A stretch of DNA of 64,000 bases from NCBI RefSeq assembly GCF_036507355.1, contig NZ_AP027877.1. The stretch is one strand, 5' to 3'. Below the pieces are notes generated by a model. It ran no database searches, had not been told where the DNA came from, and saw only the letters and a list, made by a program, of their open reading frames with translations. Numbering within the stretch: position 1 is the first letter of the stretch; each line of letters opens with the position of its first letter. The translations under genes were made by a program, and so were the position numbers. Below are positions 2,586 through 36,191 of this stretch, piece after piece. The DNA is from Escherichia coli. Lineage in GTDB: Bacteria > Pseudomonadota > Gammaproteobacteria > Enterobacterales > Enterobacteriaceae.

Positions 2586-5500
2586 TTACTCGTTATCAGA
2601 ACCGCCCAGACCTGCGTTCAGCAGTTCTGCCAGGCTGGCAGATGCGTCTTCTGCAGTCACCTGCGGTGCAGCCGGAGCTTCACCCGCAGCACGGCGACGC
2701 ATACGATCCTGGTGGTACGCGTAACCGGTACCTGCCGGGATCAGACGACCCACGATAACGTTCTCTTTCAGGCCGCGCAGTTCGTCGCGTTTGCCCGCAA
2801 CGGCTGCTTCGGTCAGCACGCGAGTGGTCTCCTGGAACGATGCCGCGGAGATGAAGGACTCGGTTGCCAGAGACGCTTTGGTGATACCCAGCAGATCGCG
2901 GGAGTAAGTTGCACCCACTTTGCCGTTCGCTTCCAGTTCGCGGTTTGCGATCTTGACGCGAGAGTATTCAACCTGTTCGCCTTCCAGGAAGTCGGAGCTG
3001 CCCGCGTTAACGATGGTAGCTTTACGCAGCATCTGACGAACGATAACTTCGATGTGTTTATCGTTAATCTTAACGCCCTGCAGACGGTATACGTCCTGTA
3101 CTTCGTTAACGATGTAACGAGTCACAGCATGAACACCACGCAGACGCAGAATGTCGTGCGGCGCTTCCGGACCGTCGGAAATTACGTCACCACGTTCTAC
3201 ACGTTCACCTTCGAACACGTTGAGCTGACGCCATTTCGGAATCATCTCTTCGTACGGATCGCTACCGTCTACCGGGGTGATAACCAGACGACGTTTACCT
3301 TTGGTTTCTTTACCGAAGGAAACGATACCGCTGATTTCAGCCAGGATTGCCGGCTCTTTCGGACGACGTGCTTCGAACAGGTCCGCAACGCGCGGCAGAC
3401 CACCGGTGATGTCCTTGGTACCGCCGGATTCCTGCGGAATACGCGCCAGGGTGTCACCAGAGCTGATCTGTACGCCATCTTCCAGCTGAACAATCGCTTT
3501 ACCCGGCAGGAAGTACTGCGCAGGCATATCGGTACCAGGGATCAGAACGTCGTTACCCTGAGCATCAACGATTTTCAGTGCCGGACGCAGATCTTTACCA
3601 CCTGCGGTACGTTCTGCGGAATCCAGAACCACCAGCGAAGACAGACCGGTCAATTCGTCGGTCTGACGCGTAATGGTCTGGCCGTCGATCATGTCAGTAA
3701 AGCGTACAAAACCGCTTACTTCGGTGATAACCGGCATGGTGTGCGGGTCCCAGTTTGCAACGGTTTCGCCGCCAGCAACCTGTTCGCCATCGCCTTTTGC
3801 CAGTACCGCACCGTAAGGTACTTTGTAGCTTTCTTTGGTACGACCGAATTCGTCGATCAGTTTCAGTTCGGTGTTACGGGAAGTGATAACCAGTTTACCG
3901 CTGGAGTTCACAACCGACTTCACGTTGCTGAGCTTGATGCTACCTTTGTTTTTCACCTGGATGCTGGATTCAGCAGCCGCACGAGATGCCGCACCACCGA
4001 TGTGGAACGTACGCATGGTCAGCTGTGTACCCGGTTCACCGATGGACTGTGCCGCGATAACACCGATTGCTTCACCCTTGTTGATGATGTGGCCACGCGC
4101 CAGGTCACGACCGTAGCAGTGCGCACATACACCAAAGTCGGTGTCACAAGATACAACAGAACGTACTTTAACCGCGTCGACAGAGTTCTCTTCCAGCAGG
4201 TCACACCACTGTTCGTGCAGCAGCGTGTTGCGCGGAACGAGGATATCAGCAGTACCCGGCTTCAGAACGTCTTCAGCAGTTACACGACCCAGTACGCGAT
4301 CGCGCAGCGGCTCTTTAACGTCACCACCCTCGATAACCGGAGTCATCATGATACCTTCATGGGTACCACAATCGTCTTCGGTAACCACCAGGTCCTGCGC
4401 CACGTCAACCAGACGACGAGTCAGGTAACCGGAGTTCGCAGTTTTCAGTGCGGTATCCGCCAGACCTTTACGAGCACCGTGGGTGGAGATGAAGTACTGG
4501 AGTACGTTCAGACCTTCACGGAAGTTCGCGGTGATTGGCGTTTCGATGATGGAGCCATCCGGCTTCGCCATCAGACCACGCATACCAGCAAGCTGACGAA
4601 TCTGTGCCGCAGAACCACGCGCACCGGAGTCGGCCATCATGTAGATGCTGTTGAAGGAAACCTGCTTCTCTTCCTGACCGTCACGGTTAATAACGGTTTC
4701 AGTTTGCAGATTATCCATCATCGCTTTGGATACACGATCGTTCGCCGCAGCCCAGATATCGATAACTTTGTTATAACGTTCGCCCGCAGTTACCAGACCA
4801 GACTGGAACTGCTCCTGAATTTCAGCAACTTCTGCTTCTGCCTCGGAGATGATTTCGTGTTTCTTCTCCGGGATGACCATGTCATCGATACCAACAGATG
4901 CACCAGAACGCGCTGCATATGCAAAGCCGGTGTACATGATCTGGTCCGCAAAAATAACGGTCGGTTTCAGACCGAGAATGCGGTAGCAGGTGTTCAGCAT
5001 TTTGGAGATTGCTTTTTTACCCAGCGCCTGGTTGACGATGGAGTAAGGCAGACCTTTCGGTACAATCATCCACAGAATGGCACGGCCAACGGTCGTGTCT
5101 TTCAGGCTGGTTTTCGCTACTAATTCACCGTTAGCATCTTTTTCATACTCGGTGATACGCACTTTAACGCGCGCATGCAGAGAAGCCAGACCAGAGCGAT
5201 ACAGACGTTCTGCTTCTTTCGGGCCAGTCAGCACCATGCCTTCGCCTTTGGCGTTAACACAGTCACGGGTCATGTAGTACAGACCCAGTACAACGTCCTG
5301 AGACGGAACGATGATTGGTTCGCCGTTCGCCGGGGACAGGATGTTGTTGGTAGACATCATCAGCGCACGCGCTTCCAGCTGGGCTTCCAGCGTCAGCGGT
5401 ACGTGAACAGCCATCTGGTCACCATCGAAGTCGGCGTTATATGCCGCACAAACCAGCGGGTGCAGCTGGATAGCTTTACCTTCGATCAGTACCGGTTCAA

Positions 5501-28147: not shown

Positions 28148-28386
28148 TGTAAAGCATCCACAATAGAAGAAGGATGCCGCAGGTTTCATCAATATTACGC
28201 GATGATGAGAACCAGATGCGACGTTGGCCGGCAGGTCTTCGGGCTTGGAGGGGTATCTAAGATACTAAGAGATGATGACTTCCCACCGAATGGCAGTGTC
28301 CGCATAACGCAATCATCGCACCTTTCCTTACCGCTGCGCGTCAGCTCCAGATTCGCACTGGATTCCCTATTAACTCACAGGACCGG
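28148..28386 (-). ncRNA. btuB 5' leader containing the cobalamin (B12) riboswitch
   Basis: - strand reads GCCGGTCCTGTGAGTTAATAGGGAATCCAGTGCGAATCTGGAGCTGACGCGCAGCGGTAAGGAAAGGTGCGATGATTGCGTTATGCGGACACTGCCATTCGGTGGGAAGTCATCATCTC..., matching the E. coli btuB leader as I remember it. Confidence 0.85.
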
Positions 28387-28515
28387 CAAGTGGATGCTAC
28401 AGGTTGTAACAAGTTACTGTCCAGACGTAGCTCACAAATAGGAATTCATCAAGATCTGGACATCTGATGAGCAATCCCTACAATCGCCGCGTACTTTAAT
28501 TTTTCAGGATACATC

Positions 28516-29655: not shown

Positions 29656-30015
29656 TTACTCAGCAACTTCCTGCTTACGGTTACGCATCTTCGCGCCAAT
29701 CCAGAACACCATAATGACGGAGAGTACTGCCGGGAAGAAGTTAGAGCCGATATCCGGATATTCCGCACGAACTACCGTGCTGTACAGCAGTACGCCGAGA
29801 ATAAAACAGGCAGCTGCCAGACCCGGCAAGCCTACCGGCATGGTGCGATTAAGATAACGTTGATGCAGGCAGTAAACCGTCAGCACCAGGGAAATAATCG
29901 GGAATACAGAAAATGGCACAATGGAGCTAAACAGCGCTGCGAAAGTACCATTAATCGATAAGCCAGCAACCAACGCCAGCAGCAGCGTACCTCTATCTTG
30001 ATTTGCTTGTTTCAT
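29656..30015 (-). CDS. yijD: inner membrane protein YijD
   Basis: 119 aa hydrophobic ORF; its start overlaps the fabR stop (ATGA), consistent with a fabR-yijD operon. Confidence 0.9.
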
Positions 30016-30662
30016 TACTCGTCCTTCACATTTCCCGGAATAATTGCGGTTTTCTCTTGTTCACGGCGATACCAGTAATAAGCCCCTTTCGAAATCATTC
30101 GCAGTTGCAGTACCAGTCGCTCTTCTAATTGCCGACGTTGTTCGACGCCGACGTCCAACGCCTCGGCACCCGCACTGAAGACAATTGTCACCATTGCTTC
30201 GGCTTGCGCTTCAGTAAACGCACGCGGCATATGGTTTTCGAGTTCCAGATAGTCCGCAAGTTCCGCAATGAAGTGCTGAATTTCACGCGCAACGGCGGCA
30301 CGAAACGCAGCGGAGGTGCCGGAGCGTTCCCGCAATAATAACCGGAAGGCGTTAGGATTATTACCGATGAACTCCATAAATGTGGAGACCGAGGTGCGGA
30401 TCACACTCCCGCCTTTGGCGATACGCTGACGCGCCTGGCGCATGAGTTGGCGTAGCATTAAACCGCTCTCATCAACCATGGTCAGACCCAGTTCGTCTAC
30501 GTCGCGGAAATGCCGATAAAAAGAGGTGGGAGCAATGCCCGCTTCACGCGCCACTTCACGCAAACTCAGGCTGGCGAAGCTGCGTTCAGCACTTAATTGG
30601 CTAAATGCGGCTTCCACCAGCGAACGGCGGGTTTTTTCTTTTTGTTGCGCTCTTACGCCCAT
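30015..30662 (-). CDS. fabR: TetR-family repressor of unsaturated fatty acid biosynthesis FabR
   Basis: Start set at [13 protein letters not shown] (215 aa) with a TetR-type HTH; alternative upstream starts at 30719 and 30758 exist in frame. Confidence 0.85.
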
Positions 30663-30768
30663 CACGATGTCTGAATCCTTGCCAAAAGTACTGCTGGCAC
30701 TATACCAGAGAATGAACATACTGGATTGCTCCAGTATTGTGAATGAACGGTAACGCAATAAAACATAT

Positions 30769-32085
30769 TTACTGCAATTCTTTGGCCGGTTCTTTTACGT
30801 ACAACAACGCCAACATCGACAGCAACGTGCCTCCACCCAGATACCACGCCGGAGCCGTCAAACTATCCAGCAACACGATGGATTGCGTAGCGAAATATTG
30901 AGCAAAACCGCCAAAGATTGCCACACCAATGCTATAAACCAGCGCAAAACCCAATGCCCGAATCCGTTTCGGCAACAGTTCAGAGATCAACAACATCACT
31001 GGCACACCGCCAAGCGTGGTAAAGCTGACCATCACGAAAACCACCGTCAGCAACATGCCAGGGCTTGGGTAATTCACCAACAGCCAGAATGACGGCCAGC
31101 TACAGATCAGCACCATCACACGGGAGATTAAAATCAGCTTTTTACGCCCGACCGAATCGCACAACATCCCCACAAGCAGCGCACCCACAAACGTAATAAC
31201 GCCCGCCAGTAACATCGCTGCATGAGAATAATGTTGAGGCATCGCCAGATACTTCGCCGCCCAGGTGCCGTAATAAAAGAGGGAGATATAGGTTGCGACC
31301 GTGCTACCAATAGCGAGTAAAACGCCATTAACGATAGTCGCCTTATGTTGCAGGAGCAGAGAAAACGCGCTTTCGCTGGTAGCAGCTTTTTTATTGCGCA
31401 CAGGCTCAGGTACGTCATTTTCCAGACTCAAACGCAACCAACAGCCGACAGGCGCTAATAACACGCCAATAAAAAACGGCACACGCCAGCCCCATTCAGC
31501 CATGACGGTTTCTGAACCGGTCGCAAAGGGCAGCCATGCACTTAAACCTAAAGCGACAACACCTCCAAAAGTTGTTGCCAGGCCTTGAGTCGCCAGTGAC
31601 CAACTGCTGTAAAAACCGCGACGATTTGCCGGAGCTGATTCAACCAACAAAGACATTGAGGCACCGACTTCGCCTCCTGCCGCAACGCCCTGAATTAGAC
31701 GCGCTAGCACCAGCGTCGCGGTTCCCCAATAGCCCGCCGTCGCATACGTCGGCGCAATGCCAATCATCAACGTGCCGAGGCTCATCAGGGCAATAGTGAA
31801 CACCATCGCGGGTTTGCGTCCGAAACGATCGGCCCAGGCCCCGACGATAATTCCACCAAGCGGGCGCATAAAAAAACTCACGCCAAACGTTGCAAATGCC
31901 AGTAACAGCGCGACATTGTGATCAGCGCTGGGTGGGAAGAAAAGCGTACTGATATAGACCACAAAAAAGTTGTAAACGCCAAAATCAAAAAATTCGAGCG
32001 CATTGCCAAACGCCGAGGCAAAAATCACCCGCCTGCCACTAGGCTTTTTCTTCACACTCACGCTTTCATTTACGATCGCCGTCAT
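30769..32085 (-). CDS. MFS transporter, metabolite:H+ symporter (MHS) type (ProP/KgtP/ShiA-like)
   Basis: 438 aa, multi-span hydrophobic profile, with the MFS/MHS signature [13 protein letters not shown]; not expected between fabR and sthA in the K-12 order. Confidence 0.8.
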
Positions 32086-32128
32086 TCCATGTTCCTTGCC
32101 ATAAAGAGTTGTTGTGTTGTTTTTTTAT

Positions 32129-33295
32129 TTATTGCAGCCAGGCTTCTACCAGTGCGCCCCAGTAGCTGCTTGCCGGGATCAGACTTGCATCGTTGAAGTC
32201 GTAACCCGGGTTATGCACCATGCAGGAACCTTCCCCGACATCGCCATTACCGAATAACAGGAAACCGCCTTTGGGTTGGGCTTCCAGCATGAAAGAGAAA
32301 TCCTCACTGCCCATCAGGGGCTTGATGCCAAACTCGGCCCGATCTTCACCAAACGTTTTACACGCCACCTGCCAGGCGAAGCGCGCCATCTCCTCGTCAT
32401 TCACTAATACCGGTGTACCGTTAACATGCGTAACCTCAGCCGTAGCACCAAAGCTGGCAGCCTGGGCCTGTGCCAAAGCAGGAATACGGGTCAGAAGAAG
32501 TTGTCGGGTATCGCGGCTAAGAGAGCGGACGCTGATTTTCATCTCAGCACTGTCAGGAATGACGTTAGCCGCCTCCCCTGCAACAATGCTGCCAACGGTA
32601 ATTACCGCCGCTTCCAGCGGATCGACATTGCGTGACACAATGCTTTGTAATGCGGTGGTGATATGTGCGGCAACCAGCACCGGATCGATGGCTTTGTGCG
32701 GGATCGCACCGTGTCCGCCACAACCACGAACCGTAATATGGAACTGATCCATTGACGCCATCAGTGCCCCTGGCTGGAAATAAAACTTACCCACCGGCAG
32801 ACCGGGCATGTTATGCATGCCGAAAATGACATCGCAGGGGAAACGATCAAAAAGCCCCTCTTTAACCATGATCTCACCGCCGTTAATCATCTCTTCCGCA
32901 GGCTGGAAGATAAGACGTAACGTGCCGTTAAAACGGCGGGTTTCGGCAAAATAACGCGCGGCCCCCAGCAGTATGGTGGTATGCCCGTCATGCCCGCAGG
33001 CGTGCATTAAACCAGGATGTTTACTGGCCCAGGGCTTGCCACTATTTTCATAAATCGGCAACGCATCCATATCCGCCCGCAGGCCAATACTTTTCTCTCC
33101 GTCGCCCACTTTTAACGTGGCTACCACGCCGGTTGTCGCCAGCCCTTGCTCAACCTTATAGCCCCACTGGCGCAGCTTTTCCGCAACCAAAGCACTGGTT
33201 TTAAATTCTTGTAATCCCAGCTCCGGGTTTTCGTGGATCTGATGGCGGATCTCACGCAGTTCTTCCTCAAACCCTCGAATATAGTGTTCGATCAT
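32129..33295 (-). CDS. M20D-family amidohydrolase (hippurate hydrolase / N-acyl-amino-acid amidohydrolase-like)
   Basis: 388 aa with the metal-binding motif MHACGHDGHT typical of M20D amidohydrolases; 43 bp upstream of the MFS gene on the same strand, so likely one operon. Confidence 0.8.
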   Translation of the reverse strand: MIEHYIRGFEEELREIRHQIHENPELGLQEFKTSALVAEKLRQWGYKVEQGLATTGVVATLKVGDGEKSIGLRADMDALPIYENSGKPWASKHPGLMHACGHDGHTTILLGAARYFAETRRFNGTLRLIFQPAEEMINGGEIMVKEGLFDRFPCDVIFGMHNMPGLPVGKFYFQPGALMASMDQFHITVRGCGGHGAIPHKAIDPVLVAAHITTALQSIVSRNVDPLEAAVITVGSIVAGEAANVIPDSAEMKISVRSLSRDTRQLLLTRIPALAQAQAASFGATAEVTHVNGTPVLVNDEEMARFAWQVACKTFGEDRAEFGIKPLMGSEDFSFMLEAQPKGGFLLFGNGDVGEGSCMVHNPGYDFNDASLIPASSYWGALVEAWLQ

Positions 33296-33624
33296 CGGCT
33301 ATTCCTTTATTCACTTATAAACAGGCTAATTAACGGATTTTATTGATGGTATAAATACAAATAACCCATCAATATAAAATATTTATATGTTTGTTTTATA
33401 AGAAGATTTCATAAAGACAATAACAAAAAAGCACGCTTCGGCAAGATAAAACTATCAGCCATAATAAAAAGCGATTAATAGTGAATAAATGTGTTAAGAA
33501 GGAGGCAGACAAAGCAAAGGCCGCTCACGCTATAGCCAGATTAATGACGGGGATCAATTGGCTTACCCGCGATAAAATGTTACCATTCTGTTGCTTTTAT
33601 GTATAAGAACAGGTAAGCCCTACC

Positions 33625-35025
33625 ATGCCACATTCCTACGATTACGATGCCATAGTAATAGGTTCCGGCCCCGGCGGCGAAGGCGCTGCAATGGGCCTGG
33701 TTAAGCAAGGTGCGCGCGTCGCAGTTATCGAGCGTTATCAAAATGTTGGCGGCGGTTGCACCCACTGGGGCACCATCCCGTCGAAAGCTCTCCGTCACGC
33801 CGTCAGCCGCATTATAGAATTCAATCAAAACCCACTATACAGCGACCATTCCCGACTGCTCCGCTCTTCTTTTGCCGATATCCTTAACCATGCCGATAAC
33901 GTGATTAATCAACAAACGCGCATGCGTCAGGGATTTTACGAACGTAATCACTGTGAAATATTGCAGGGGAACGCTCGCTTTGTTGACGAGCATACGTTGG
34001 CGCTGGATTGCCCGGACGGCAGCGTTGAAACACTAACCGCTGAAAAATTTGTTATTGCCTGCGGCTCTCGTCCATATCATCCAACAGATGTTGATTTCAC
34101 CCATCCACGCATTTACGACAGCGACTCAATTCTCAGCATGCACCACGAACCGCGCCATGTACTTATCTATGGTGCTGGAGTGATCGGCTGTGAATATGCG
34201 TCGATCTTCCGCGGTATGGATGTAAAAGTGGATCTGATCAACACCCGCGATCGCCTGCTGGCATTTCTCGATCAAGAGATGTCAGATTCTCTCTCCTATC
34301 ACTTCTGGAACAGTGGCGTAGTGATTCGTCACAACGAAGAGTACGAGAAGATCGAAGGCTGTGACGACGGTGTAATCATGCATCTGAAGTCGGGTAAAAA
34401 ACTGAAAGCCGACTGTCTGCTCTATGCCAACGGCCGCACCGGTAATACCGATTCGCTGGCATTACAGAACATTGGGCTGGAAACTGACAGTCGCGGACAG
34501 CTGAAGGTCAACAGCATGTATCAGACCGCACAGCCGCACGTTTACGCGGTGGGCGACGTGATTGGTTATCCGAGCCTGGCATCAGCGGCCTATGACCAGG
34601 GGCGCATTGCCGCGCAGGCGCTGGTAAAAGGCGAAGCCACCGCACATCTGATTGAAGATATCCCTACCGGCATTTACACCATCCCGGAAATCAGCTCTGT
34701 GGGCAAAACCGAACAGCAGCTGACCGCGATGAAAGTGCCATATGAAGTGGGCCGCGCCCAGTTCAAACATCTGGCACGTGCACAAATCGTCGGCATGAAC
34801 GTGGGCACGCTGAAAATTTTGTTCCATCGGGAAACAAAAGAGATTCTGGGCATTCACTGCTTTGGCGAGCGCGCTGCCGAAATTATTCATATCGGTCAGG
34901 CGATTATGGAACAGAAAGGTGGCGGCAACACTATTGAGTACTTCGTCAACACCACCTTTAACTACCCGACGATGGCGGAAGCCTATCGGGTAGCTGCGTT
35001 AAACGGTTTAAACCGCCTGTTTTAA
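33625..35025 (+). CDS. sthA: soluble pyridine nucleotide transhydrogenase
   Basis: 466 aa [469 protein letters not shown]; FAD/NAD-binding flavoprotein disulfide reductase fold. Confidence 0.95.
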
Positions 35026-35925: not shown

Positions 35926-36020
35926 TATCCATCCTCCATCGCCACGATAGTTCATGGCGATAGGTAGAATAGCAATGAACGATTATCCCTATCAAGCATT
36001 CTGACTGATAATTGCTCACA

Positions 36021-36135
36021 GAAACGGAGCGGCACCTCTTTTAACCCTTGAAGTCACTGCCCGTTTCGAGAGTTTCTCAACTCGAATAACTAAAGCCAAC
36101 GTGAACTTTTGCGGATCTCCAGGATCCGCTTTTTT
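36021..36135 (+). ncRNA. oxyS: OxyS small regulatory RNA
   Basis: GAAACGGAGCGGCACCTCTTTTAACCCTTGAAGTCACTGCCCGTTTCGAGAGTTTCTCAACTCGAATAACTAAAGCCAACGTGAACTTTTGCGGATCTCCAGGATCCGCTTTTTTTT, divergent from oxyR and ending in a terminator hairpin plus U-run. Confidence 0.9.
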
Positions 36136-36191
36136 TTGCCATAAAAAAGCCCGGCGATAAGCCAGGCTCAAATTTGTACATATAAATGTTC

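Follow-up and report, generated by a model that had tools for sequence, protein, structure and literature searches.

When fabR and sthA stand 2959 bp apart in one Escherichia coli genome and 330 bp apart in K-12 genomes, was the extra DNA gained by the one or lost by the other, and what does it encode? Here, we address both questions for a 64,000-nucleotide stretch (the window) of contig NZ_AP027877.1 (E. coli, assembly GCF_036507355.1). A preliminary description of the window had read the extra DNA as a two-gene module inserted between the two genes.

Layout of the fabR-sthA locus

The module lies between fabR (30015-30665; the PGAP start is GTG, with an ATG at 30662) and, on the far side, sthA (33625-35025, plus strand). 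Its first gene (32129-33295, minus strand) is an intact open reading frame for a 388-aa M20-family amidohydrolase (M20D-type, TIGR01891), with an AGGA ribosome-binding site ahead of the ATG. The second (30769-32085, minus strand) is an intact open reading frame for a 438-aa MHS-like MFS permease, which PGAP names “citrate-proton symporter.” Because the 43-bp spacer between them (32086-32128, minus strand) holds an AAGGAA ribosome-binding site for the permease gene and, when read through, neither a hairpin nor a T-run, we infer that the two genes are co-transcribed.

The permease stop codon is followed after 103 to 106 bp by the fabR start. A consensus scan of this spacer (30666-30768, minus strand; the proximal fabR upstream region) found only weak hairpins lacking T-runs and no canonical terminator. 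Both spacings and the absence of an obvious terminator before fabR agree with the preliminary description. The perfect palindrome ATACTGGAGCAATCCAGTAT (30737-30718) was considered as a conserved terminator or operator and was rejected, since Escherichia albertii neither conserves it nor carries a compensatory change.

Upstream of the amidohydrolase gene, a very AT-rich border had been drawn across the whole of 33296-33624 (330 bp). Only its first part stands: 33296-33505 (27.6% GC) belongs to the module alone, is absent from K-12, and is presumed to be a promoter and silencing region. The remainder, 33506-33624 (plus strand, 44.5% GC), is the ordinary sthA upstream region, common to K-12 and other genomes without the module and 97.5 to 100% identical between K-12-type and module-bearing genomes.

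The open reading frame list and a repeat search gave no integrase or transposase gene, tRNA or att target, IS element, or flanking direct repeat at the module, and no regulator, as had been noted before. Rfam matched nothing inside it and, in its vicinity, just OxyS and the btuB cobalamin riboswitch; its GC content (52 to 54%) is close to that of the whole window (51.9%). With no mobility genes, no repeats, host-like GC content, and an occupied site in E. albertii (below), the module does not have the marks of a genomic island or mobile insertion.

Two forms of the locus and the direction of change

Among 5426 complete E. coli genomes, the locus takes two forms: the module is present in 1505 and a 73-bp filler in 3918, which together account for 5423. 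About a quarter of strains are carriers, and the module is absent from 72% of complete genomes. The named carriers are all uropathogenic or E2348-type, or O157:H7 or O145, and the presence of the module sets uropathogenic (CFT073-type) and O157-type strains apart from K-12, O26:H11, and ST38-type strains. K-12 genomes, MG1655 and DH10B derivatives included, lack both genes in their 330-bp intergenic region, as the preliminary description had stated. Disrupted alleles occur as well, with a frameshifted permease in one strain (L087), an IS1 insertion in another (H7), and, in E. albertii, a premature stop three codons before the end.

The module is already known and annotated and is no new kind of system. 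CFT073 c4924-c4926 (“SAC 14”) and O157 Sakai ECs4892-ECs4893 are the same module at the same locus, and SAC 14 was reported absent from K-12, under the label “citrate metabolism,” in a 2010 synteny survey (PMC2831201). The three papers that list the module (PMC2831201, PMC5956150, PMC2241611) do not discuss deletion polarity or function, and a literature search found no paper on the fabR-sthA intergenic region.

A recent insertion, that is, a small genomic islet set into a K-12-like fabR-sthA region, would fit the absence of the module from K-12 and from most complete genomes, the very AT-rich DNA on one border, and the placement of the nearest non-Escherichia relatives, among the matches listed, in Betaproteobacteria. 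Against it, K-12-type genomes still have the 3'-terminal 35 bp of the permease gene (30769-30803, minus strand; 10 residues plus the stop codon) at 100% identity. The other 2702 bp (30804-33505; BLAST breakpoints against the window) are missing from them, with the 73-bp filler in their place. Since several distant homologues have in their tails a KE(T/P)A motif that lines up with the C-terminal tail of the permease, the 35 bp are true coding sequence. Every filler variant examined keeps the 35-bp tail and has an identical left junction.

E. albertii also carries the module at the same place, in a locus collinear over 12.9 kb. E. coli and E. albertii show a synonymous divergence (dS) of 0.31 to 0.35 in the M20 gene and 0.57 to 0.67 in the MFS gene, with the flanking core genes at 0.27 to 0.28 (fabR), 0.38 (trmA), and 0.49 to 0.51 (sthA). 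Because the dS of the module matches that of these flanks, the module is, by this comparison, older than the split between E. coli and E. albertii. The insertion reading is further opposed by a module GC content equal to that of the host and by the lack of any integrase, tRNA, IS element, or direct repeat, and we regard it as very improbable. The retained permease tail and the module in E. albertii at the same site instead establish, from sequence comparison, that K-12 is a deletion derivative; the synteny check of insertion versus deletion that the preliminary description had proposed thus went against its own wording. sthA and fabR are presumably adjacent in Salmonella LT2.

The event was no simple deletion, since the 73-bp filler has no detectable source: in local alignments to the module, the AT-rich region, the E. 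albertii locus, and the 64-kb window as a whole, shuffled sequences did at least as well as the filler. On the fabR side, the 138 bp upstream of the gene are identical with and without the module, which contradicts the earlier statement that the module displaces the native fabR upstream region. Within it, 30666-30768 is 100% identical in K-12 and module-bearing strains, and its 3' two-thirds are conserved in E. albertii. As a corollary, the K-12 region more than 138 bp upstream of fabR would be the scar left by the loss of a transporter gene. For a K-12 locus that has been much studied, the direction of a structural difference is thereby corrected: the fabR-sthA intergenic region is read as a deletion scar, which matters for any interpretation of the sequences upstream of fabR and sthA.

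Both genes have evolved under sustained strong purifying selection, as indicated by dN/dS ratios (within E. coli and versus E. albertii) of 0.03 to 0.10 for M20 and 0.03 to 0.06 for MFS. These ratios weigh against the genes being decaying relics with no current function in their carriers, as does the fact that the window and the examined reference loci have both open reading frames intact. Loss of the module from most E. coli, the L087 frameshift, the H7 IS1 insertion, the early E. albertii stop, the lack of a dedicated regulator, and an expression that appears silent by default would all be expected of relics; even so, we consider this explanation most unlikely.

The window allele is mosaic; its divergence from most E. 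coli copies is about 4% across the module as a whole and about 6% for the permease gene. The mosaic permease implies that some alleles have moved by recombination within E. coli, which blurs a purely vertical history. A scan of contigs returned E. albertii as the only other Escherichia among the matches listed, a search of a large protein database with the module proteins gave near-identical E. coli entries only, and an exact look-up of the YijD protein gave E. coli contexts only.

The enzyme, the permease, and their relatives

The 388-aa protein matches Peptidase_M20 (PF01546; 1.2e-43, residues 72 to 384), with M20_dimer (PF07687; 1.8e-12, residues 184 to 279) inserted in the catalytic domain, and scores 358.7 bits against TIGR01891, well over the curated cutoff of 153.75. 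It carries HACGHD (98 to 103), QPAEE (131 to 135), GMHN (159 to 162), and MVHNP (359 to 363). In alignments, YxeP and ILL2 show the same first three motifs and the same C-terminal histidine, and we take these motif residues to be metal ligands, as in published M20D structures. The M20D assignment and the HACGHD site of the preliminary description are thus upheld.

Four M20D structures aligned over nearly the full length at 1e-64 to 1e-71: YxeP (1YSJ, Bacillus subtilis), the Arabidopsis IAA-amino acid hydrolase ILL2 (1XMB), a Corynebacterium N-acyl-glutamine aminoacylase (6SLF), and a Staphylococcus aureus M20 peptidase (4EWT). The E. coli AbgA/AbgB-type structure 3IO1 aligned more weakly (1e-35). 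HACGHD, QPAEE, GMHN, and the C-terminal histidine are conserved in the alignments with YxeP, ILL2, and the N-acyl-glutamine aminoacylase. The M20D enzymes share with the module protein a two-domain architecture of a catalytic M20 domain and an inserted dimerization domain. The putative activity of the module protein is amide-bond hydrolysis of an N-acyl amino acid or related substrate. The protein reaches equivalog level with no characterized enzyme, scoring 334.3 against a cutoff of 500 for CpsA (NF040868) and 321.5 against 550 for DoeB2 (NF038260). Because the substrates of its relatives vary so widely, none can be transferred to it.

The 438-aa protein matches MFS_1 (PF07690; 2.6e-27, residues 26 to 387) and, on both halves, Sugar_tr (PF00083). 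A hydropathy scan, crude and not a proper topology prediction, gave 11 peaks, compatible with 12 helices. The MHS-type loop motif GxxxDRxGRK lies at residues 82 to 94, and the top models are TIGR00883, TcuC, ProP, and ShiA, in keeping with the MHS family (TC 2.A.1.6; TcuC, CitA, KgtP, ProP, ShiA). The call of an MFS permease of MHS type and the loop motif first cited for it therefore both stand. Unlike certified members, however, the permease falls under every curated MHS-type cutoff: the best NCBIfam model, TIGR00883 (metabolite/H+ symporter), gave 322.5 bits against 443.45, and the second best, PRK15075 (TcuC), gave 285.7 bits against 445. It is thus placed in a divergent subfamily and termed MHS-like, with no claim to certified membership.

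Uptake of citrate or tricarballylate would accord with the PGAP product name, with the SAC 14 label “citrate metabolism” (PMC2831201), and with the second rank of TcuC. The TcuC score is nevertheless far under its cutoff, no citrate-catabolic gene adjoins the module, and a conserved amidohydrolase partner would be pointless for citrate uptake; we give this reading hardly any credence. As the curated scores lend it no support, the name “citrate-proton symporter” is probably misleading.

The pairing of enzyme and transporter that the preliminary description had pointed out is real and recurs in distant bacteria. Among the matches listed, 10 of 78 distant loci have an M20 gene with an MHS gene behind it on the same strand (L007, L010-L012, L014, L021, L022, L030, L048, and L051; Burkholderia, Paraburkholderia, Pseudomonas, and others), and a divergent LysR regulator was verified in four of the five M20-MHS loci checked. 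These LysR-M20-MHS cassettes (Burkholderia, Paraburkholderia, Pseudochelatococcus, and Pseudomonas) have the gene order and orientation of the module, with MHS 20 to 240 bp after M20, at 50 to 58% (M20) and 36 to 45% (MFS) identity. They differ in that several have the divergent LysR gene and the Escherichia module has none. The nearest relatives outside Escherichia, among the matches listed, are in Betaproteobacteria and Pseudomonas at no more than 63% identity (M20, 63%, Silvimonas; MFS, 45%).

A further parallel is abgABT of E. coli, which takes up and cleaves p-aminobenzoyl-glutamate, is cryptically expressed, and is present in K-12. Both systems set an M20D-type hydrolase gene beside a dedicated importer for an acyl-amino-acid-like compound. 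abgABT differs from the module in its AbgT transporter, which is not of the MFS, its two hydrolase subunits, its LysR regulator AbgR, and its locus.

Older annotations (“putative hippuricase,” “hippurate hydrolase”) suggest that the pair might take up and hydrolyze hippurate (N-benzoylglycine), which could be useful in urine or the herbivore gut. The carriers named above fit such a role. The description of TIGR01891 takes in hippurate hydrolases, and MHS carriers (TC 2.A.1.6) take aromatic and other carboxylates. Yet the name was given by homology only, through automated or legacy annotation, and identity to the solved M20D enzymes is modest, with substrates that differ among them (YxeP, IAA-amino acid hydrolase, N-acyl-glutamine aminoacylase). 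A literature search on these names in carrier strains found no functional study or other experimental paper, and E. coli is classically described as negative in the hippurate test. Hippurate as the specific substrate is therefore a rather doubtful proposition, although it belongs to the wider class considered below.

Proposed function and expression

We think it likely that the two genes form an operon for catabolism or salvage that was already present in the common lineage of E. coli and E. albertii and has since disappeared from most E. coli, K-12 included. The second gene product, a proton-coupled MHS-type MFS permease, would bring in an anionic amide, most likely an amino acid with an N-acyl or N-aroyl group, as in hippurate or the N-acetyl amino acids. 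The amidohydrolase encoded by the first gene, a metal-dependent enzyme of M20D type, would then split this compound at its amide bond into a carboxylic acid and a free amino acid. The substrate is probably an anionic N-acyl amino acid. Transcription of both genes would be driven by a promoter in the AT-rich region 33296-33505, which nucleoid proteins probably silence in laboratory culture. The module has no dedicated regulator, unlike Burkholderia-type cassettes with their LysR gene. An ancient horizontal transfer probably brought the pair into the Escherichia lineage, and a single old deletion would have taken out the 2702 bp, so that 35 bp of the permease gene remained beside the 73-bp filler.

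Such a unit, an importer with an amide-cleaving enzyme, is an ordinary one for nutrient scavenging and of modest overall importance. As a conserved and selected pair, it is a reasonable candidate for niche-specific nutrient use.

Published transcriptome tables include the module. The CFT073 orthologue c4924 (“putative hippuricase”) rose by a log2 value of 6.6 (about 100-fold) on overexpression of TosR, which the authors predicted to bind AT-rich DNA and to antagonize H-NS and Lrp (PMC5956150). This rise fits a silenced AT-rich promoter, and silencing of 33296-33505 by nucleoid proteins may be inferred from that one overexpression study in another strain.

A more elaborate version of the salvage proposal, which we hold to be a long shot, would make the module a silenced system that takes up and hydrolyzes an acyl-amino-acid conjugate from the host, such as hippurate or a related N-aroyl or N-acyl amino acid. 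It would be an old presence/absence polymorphism under balancing selection, kept in uropathogenic and O157-type lineages and lost elsewhere, whose derepressed transcript reads through into fabR-yijD. If such read-through took place, scavenging of the nutrient would change how much of the unsaturated-fatty-acid repressor is made.

In O157 Sakai, ECs4893, which from locus-tag order appears to be the permease gene, was 2.09-fold up at a growth transition (PMC2241611).

Locus structure and allelic forms

The module consists of two minus-strand genes, an amidohydrolase gene (388-amino-acid [aa] open reading frame [ORF]; window 32129-33295), first in transcription order, and a permease gene (438-aa ORF; 30769-32085), second, with fabR (30015-30665, minus) and yijD (29656-30015, minus) downstream. 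Divergent from it is sthA (33625-35025, plus), followed by oxyR, OxyS, and argH; the OxyS sRNA (36021-36130, plus) and the btuB cobalamin riboswitch (28213-28402, minus) were at their expected positions. The 43 bp between the module genes contained a ribosome-binding site (AAGGAA) and lacked a hairpin. Counting from the permease stop codon, fabR starts after 103 bp at the annotated GTG or after 106 bp at the ATG. Remeasured ORFs and spacings all agreed with the preliminary description.

Window 30600-33700 was searched (megablast) against 5426 complete E. coli genomes, of which 1505 (28%) had the whole module at the same locus and the remainder matched the flanks only. As previously described, K-12 lacks the module; in K-12-type genomes the fabR-sthA interval is 330 bp long, matches the window at 30500-30803 (100% identity) and from 33506 onward (99%), and has a 73-bp filler in place of 30804-33505 (2702 bp). 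The filler was present in 3918 genomes and, since module and filler carriers together made up 5423/5426, the locus has two forms. The filler showed no detectable similarity to the module or any other part of the window, nor to the locus in E. albertii.

The module had been read as an insertion relative to K-12, which did not hold, because E. albertii has the module and the K-12-type interval keeps, at its left side, 35 bp of the permease gene, stop codon included. This segment codes for 10 residues plus the stop; tblastn homologues from Burkholderia, Paraburkholderia, and Pseudomonas (36 to 45% identity) aligned into it, several with matching tail motifs (FMKETA, TRETA, and LKEAPR), so the tail was inherited as part of the permease gene. 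Preexisting intergenic DNA fused to a truncated gene was ruled out as its source by the same alignments. K-12, holding a gene fragment, is therefore the derived state, and we conclude from sequence comparison that a single old deletion took the module from most E. coli, leaving a scar that makes up part of the intergenic DNA between fabR and sthA in K-12. Among the filler variants inspected, differences amounted to a 9-bp gap or a small number of substitutions, and all had the same left junction and 35-bp remnant, which points to a single old event. Variants of the filler (positions 3205-3277 of the K-12-type locus, L003) ranged down to 90 to 95% identity, which makes the deletion allele old in its own right.

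Sporadic disruptions were also seen among module carriers: the permease was split into 99 and 345 aa in one E. coli assembly (locus L087, 4211-5526), IS1 lay inside the module in strain ZJ3920 (database match H7), and codon 386 of the amidohydrolase was TAG rather than TGG in the E. albertii type strain (locus L004), three codons before the usual stop. E. coli RM13322 (locus L083, 2930-4301) had no fabR, a truncated yijD, and ~1.1 kb of unannotated sequence including a long low-complexity G-rich run, and may represent an assembly artefact. The adjoining oxyR-argH interval (about 35926-36190) showed a second presence/absence polymorphism, with an MFS transporter gene and manD after oxyR in some E. 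coli (loci L083, L089, L093, L096, and L098) versus argH in the window.

Age and origin of the module

The E. albertii type strain had the order fabR-permease-amidohydrolase-sthA, with collinearity extending over 12.9 kb (91.4% identity). For this species pair (E. coli versus E. albertii), dS was 0.31 to 0.35 for the amidohydrolase and 0.57 to 0.67 for the permease, values bracketing those of the flanking core genes (fabR, 0.27 to 0.28; trmA, 0.38; sthA, 0.49 to 0.51). GC contents of the module genes were 51.8% and 53.9% (window, 51.9%), and no integrase or flanking repeat was found at the module, as already noted, nor any tRNA or IS element. Collinearity, dS, GC content, and the lack of a mobility signature together indicate that the module predates the split, having occupied this locus in the ancestor shared by the two species. 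In every comparison, dN/dS was 0.03 to 0.10 for both genes, strong purifying selection that indicates function wherever they are retained.

In a deeper scan (one genome per species), the amidohydrolase relatives among the matches listed were E. albertii (97%), next Silvimonas (63%), and then Bordetella, Paraburkholderia, Variovorax, Pseudomonas, and rhizobia (46 to 58%); these listed matches suggest that the Escherichia lineage gained the module long ago by horizontal transfer.

Divergence of the permease gene from E. coli RM19259 was strongly mosaic across 31215-32014, with 39 differences per 200 bp (31215-31414), 0 (31415-31614), and then 12 and 23. Its dS was 0.23, versus 0.01 to 0.06 for flanking genes, a pattern suggesting either recombination inside the gene or deeply separated allelic lineages in E. 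coli.

Encoded proteins and prior knowledge

The 388-aa protein was confirmed as an M20-family amidohydrolase (Peptidase_M20, 1.2e-43; M20_dimer, 1.8e-12; TIGR01891 amidohydrolase subfamily, 358.7 bits against a curated cutoff of 153.75). It aligned at near full length to M20D-type structures (YxeP, ILL2, N-acyl-glutamine aminoacylase, and S. aureus M20 peptidase; E-values 1e-64 to 1e-71), with conserved motifs HACGHD (98-103), QPAEE (131-135), GMHN (159-162), and a C-terminal His in MVHNP (359-363). The CpsA and DoeB2 equivalog cutoffs were not reached, so no characterised function is transferable.

The permease had been called MHS-type MFS; the 438-aa protein has MFS_1 and Sugar_tr domains and TIGR00883 (metabolite:H+ symporter) as its best model, although at 322.5 bits it scored under the cutoff of 443. 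As TcuC, ProP, and ShiA cutoffs were likewise not reached, it is MHS-like but divergent, and the PGAP product name "citrate-proton symporter" is not supported by these model scores.

The proposed enzyme-transporter pairing stood, and an amidohydrolase gene followed by a same-strand MHS-like permease gene recurred in 10/78 loci outside Escherichia. This recurring cassette supports a model in which the permease would import a substrate that the amidohydrolase would then hydrolyse. Our best guess at the substrate, from family membership and the carboxylate preference of MHS carriers, would be an anionic N-acyl or N-aroyl amino acid.

As an accessory pair of metabolic genes, the module is of a familiar kind and was known before, being routinely annotated by PGAP in >1500 complete genomes; no functional study of it was found in the literature. 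A 2010 synteny survey listed the adjacent gene set c4924-c4926 ("citrate metabolism") as absent from K-12, present in B2 strains F11, 536, UTI89, and E2348, and negative in O157 (PMC2831201). Contrary to that table, the permease gene was at the same locus in O157:H7 and O145 genomes (database matches H52 and H55); the disagreement probably stems from the survey's rule, which demanded all genes of a set.

Regulation and flanking noncoding DNA

A divergent LysR-family regulator lay just upstream in 4/5 checked pair-bearing loci outside Escherichia; unlike these, the Escherichia copy has no adjacent regulator, as first described. The very AT-rich segment reported at 33296-33624 (330 bp) is so only in its module-specific part (33296-33505; 210 bp, 27.6% GC), not in the region up to sthA common to K-12 (33506-33624; 119 bp, 44.5% GC). 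In CFT073, where oxyR is c4922, c4924 ("putative hippuricase") was among the top five genes induced on TosR overproduction (log2 fold change, 6.6); TosR is a PapB-family protein predicted by the authors to bind AT-rich DNA and antagonise H-NS and Lrp (PMC5956150). From this induction and the AT-rich region, we infer a promoter silenced by nucleoid proteins in standard conditions. O157 Sakai ECs4893, which locus-tag order would make the permease gene, is a non-K-12 gene 2.09-fold up at growth transition (PMC2241611).

Between the permease gene and fabR, a scan for canonical intrinsic terminators found only short hairpins without T-runs, in keeping with the lack of an obvious terminator reported before; the folding stability of the spacer was only slightly above that of shuffled sequences (z = -2.3). 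Read-through into fabR is possible on this sequence. The module had also been said to displace the native region upstream of fabR, yet the 138 bp upstream are identical in carriers and non-carriers, with differences only farther upstream. Thus, the preliminary description was right on the gene families and pairing, but not on the direction of the event or on what the module does to the region upstream of fabR. The 70 bp nearest fabR were almost invariant. Upstream of fabR, two perfect 8-bp arms separated by 4 nt form an inverted repeat (ATACTGGAGCAATCCAGTAT; 30718-30737, minus) that overlaps a weak promoter-like match; in E. albertii it has two uncompensated changes, and its left arm is altered.

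The sole promoter-like match facing sthA (TCGGCA-16-CATAAT; 33438-33465, plus) sits in the module-specific AT-rich DNA, so carriers and non-carriers differ farther upstream of sthA.
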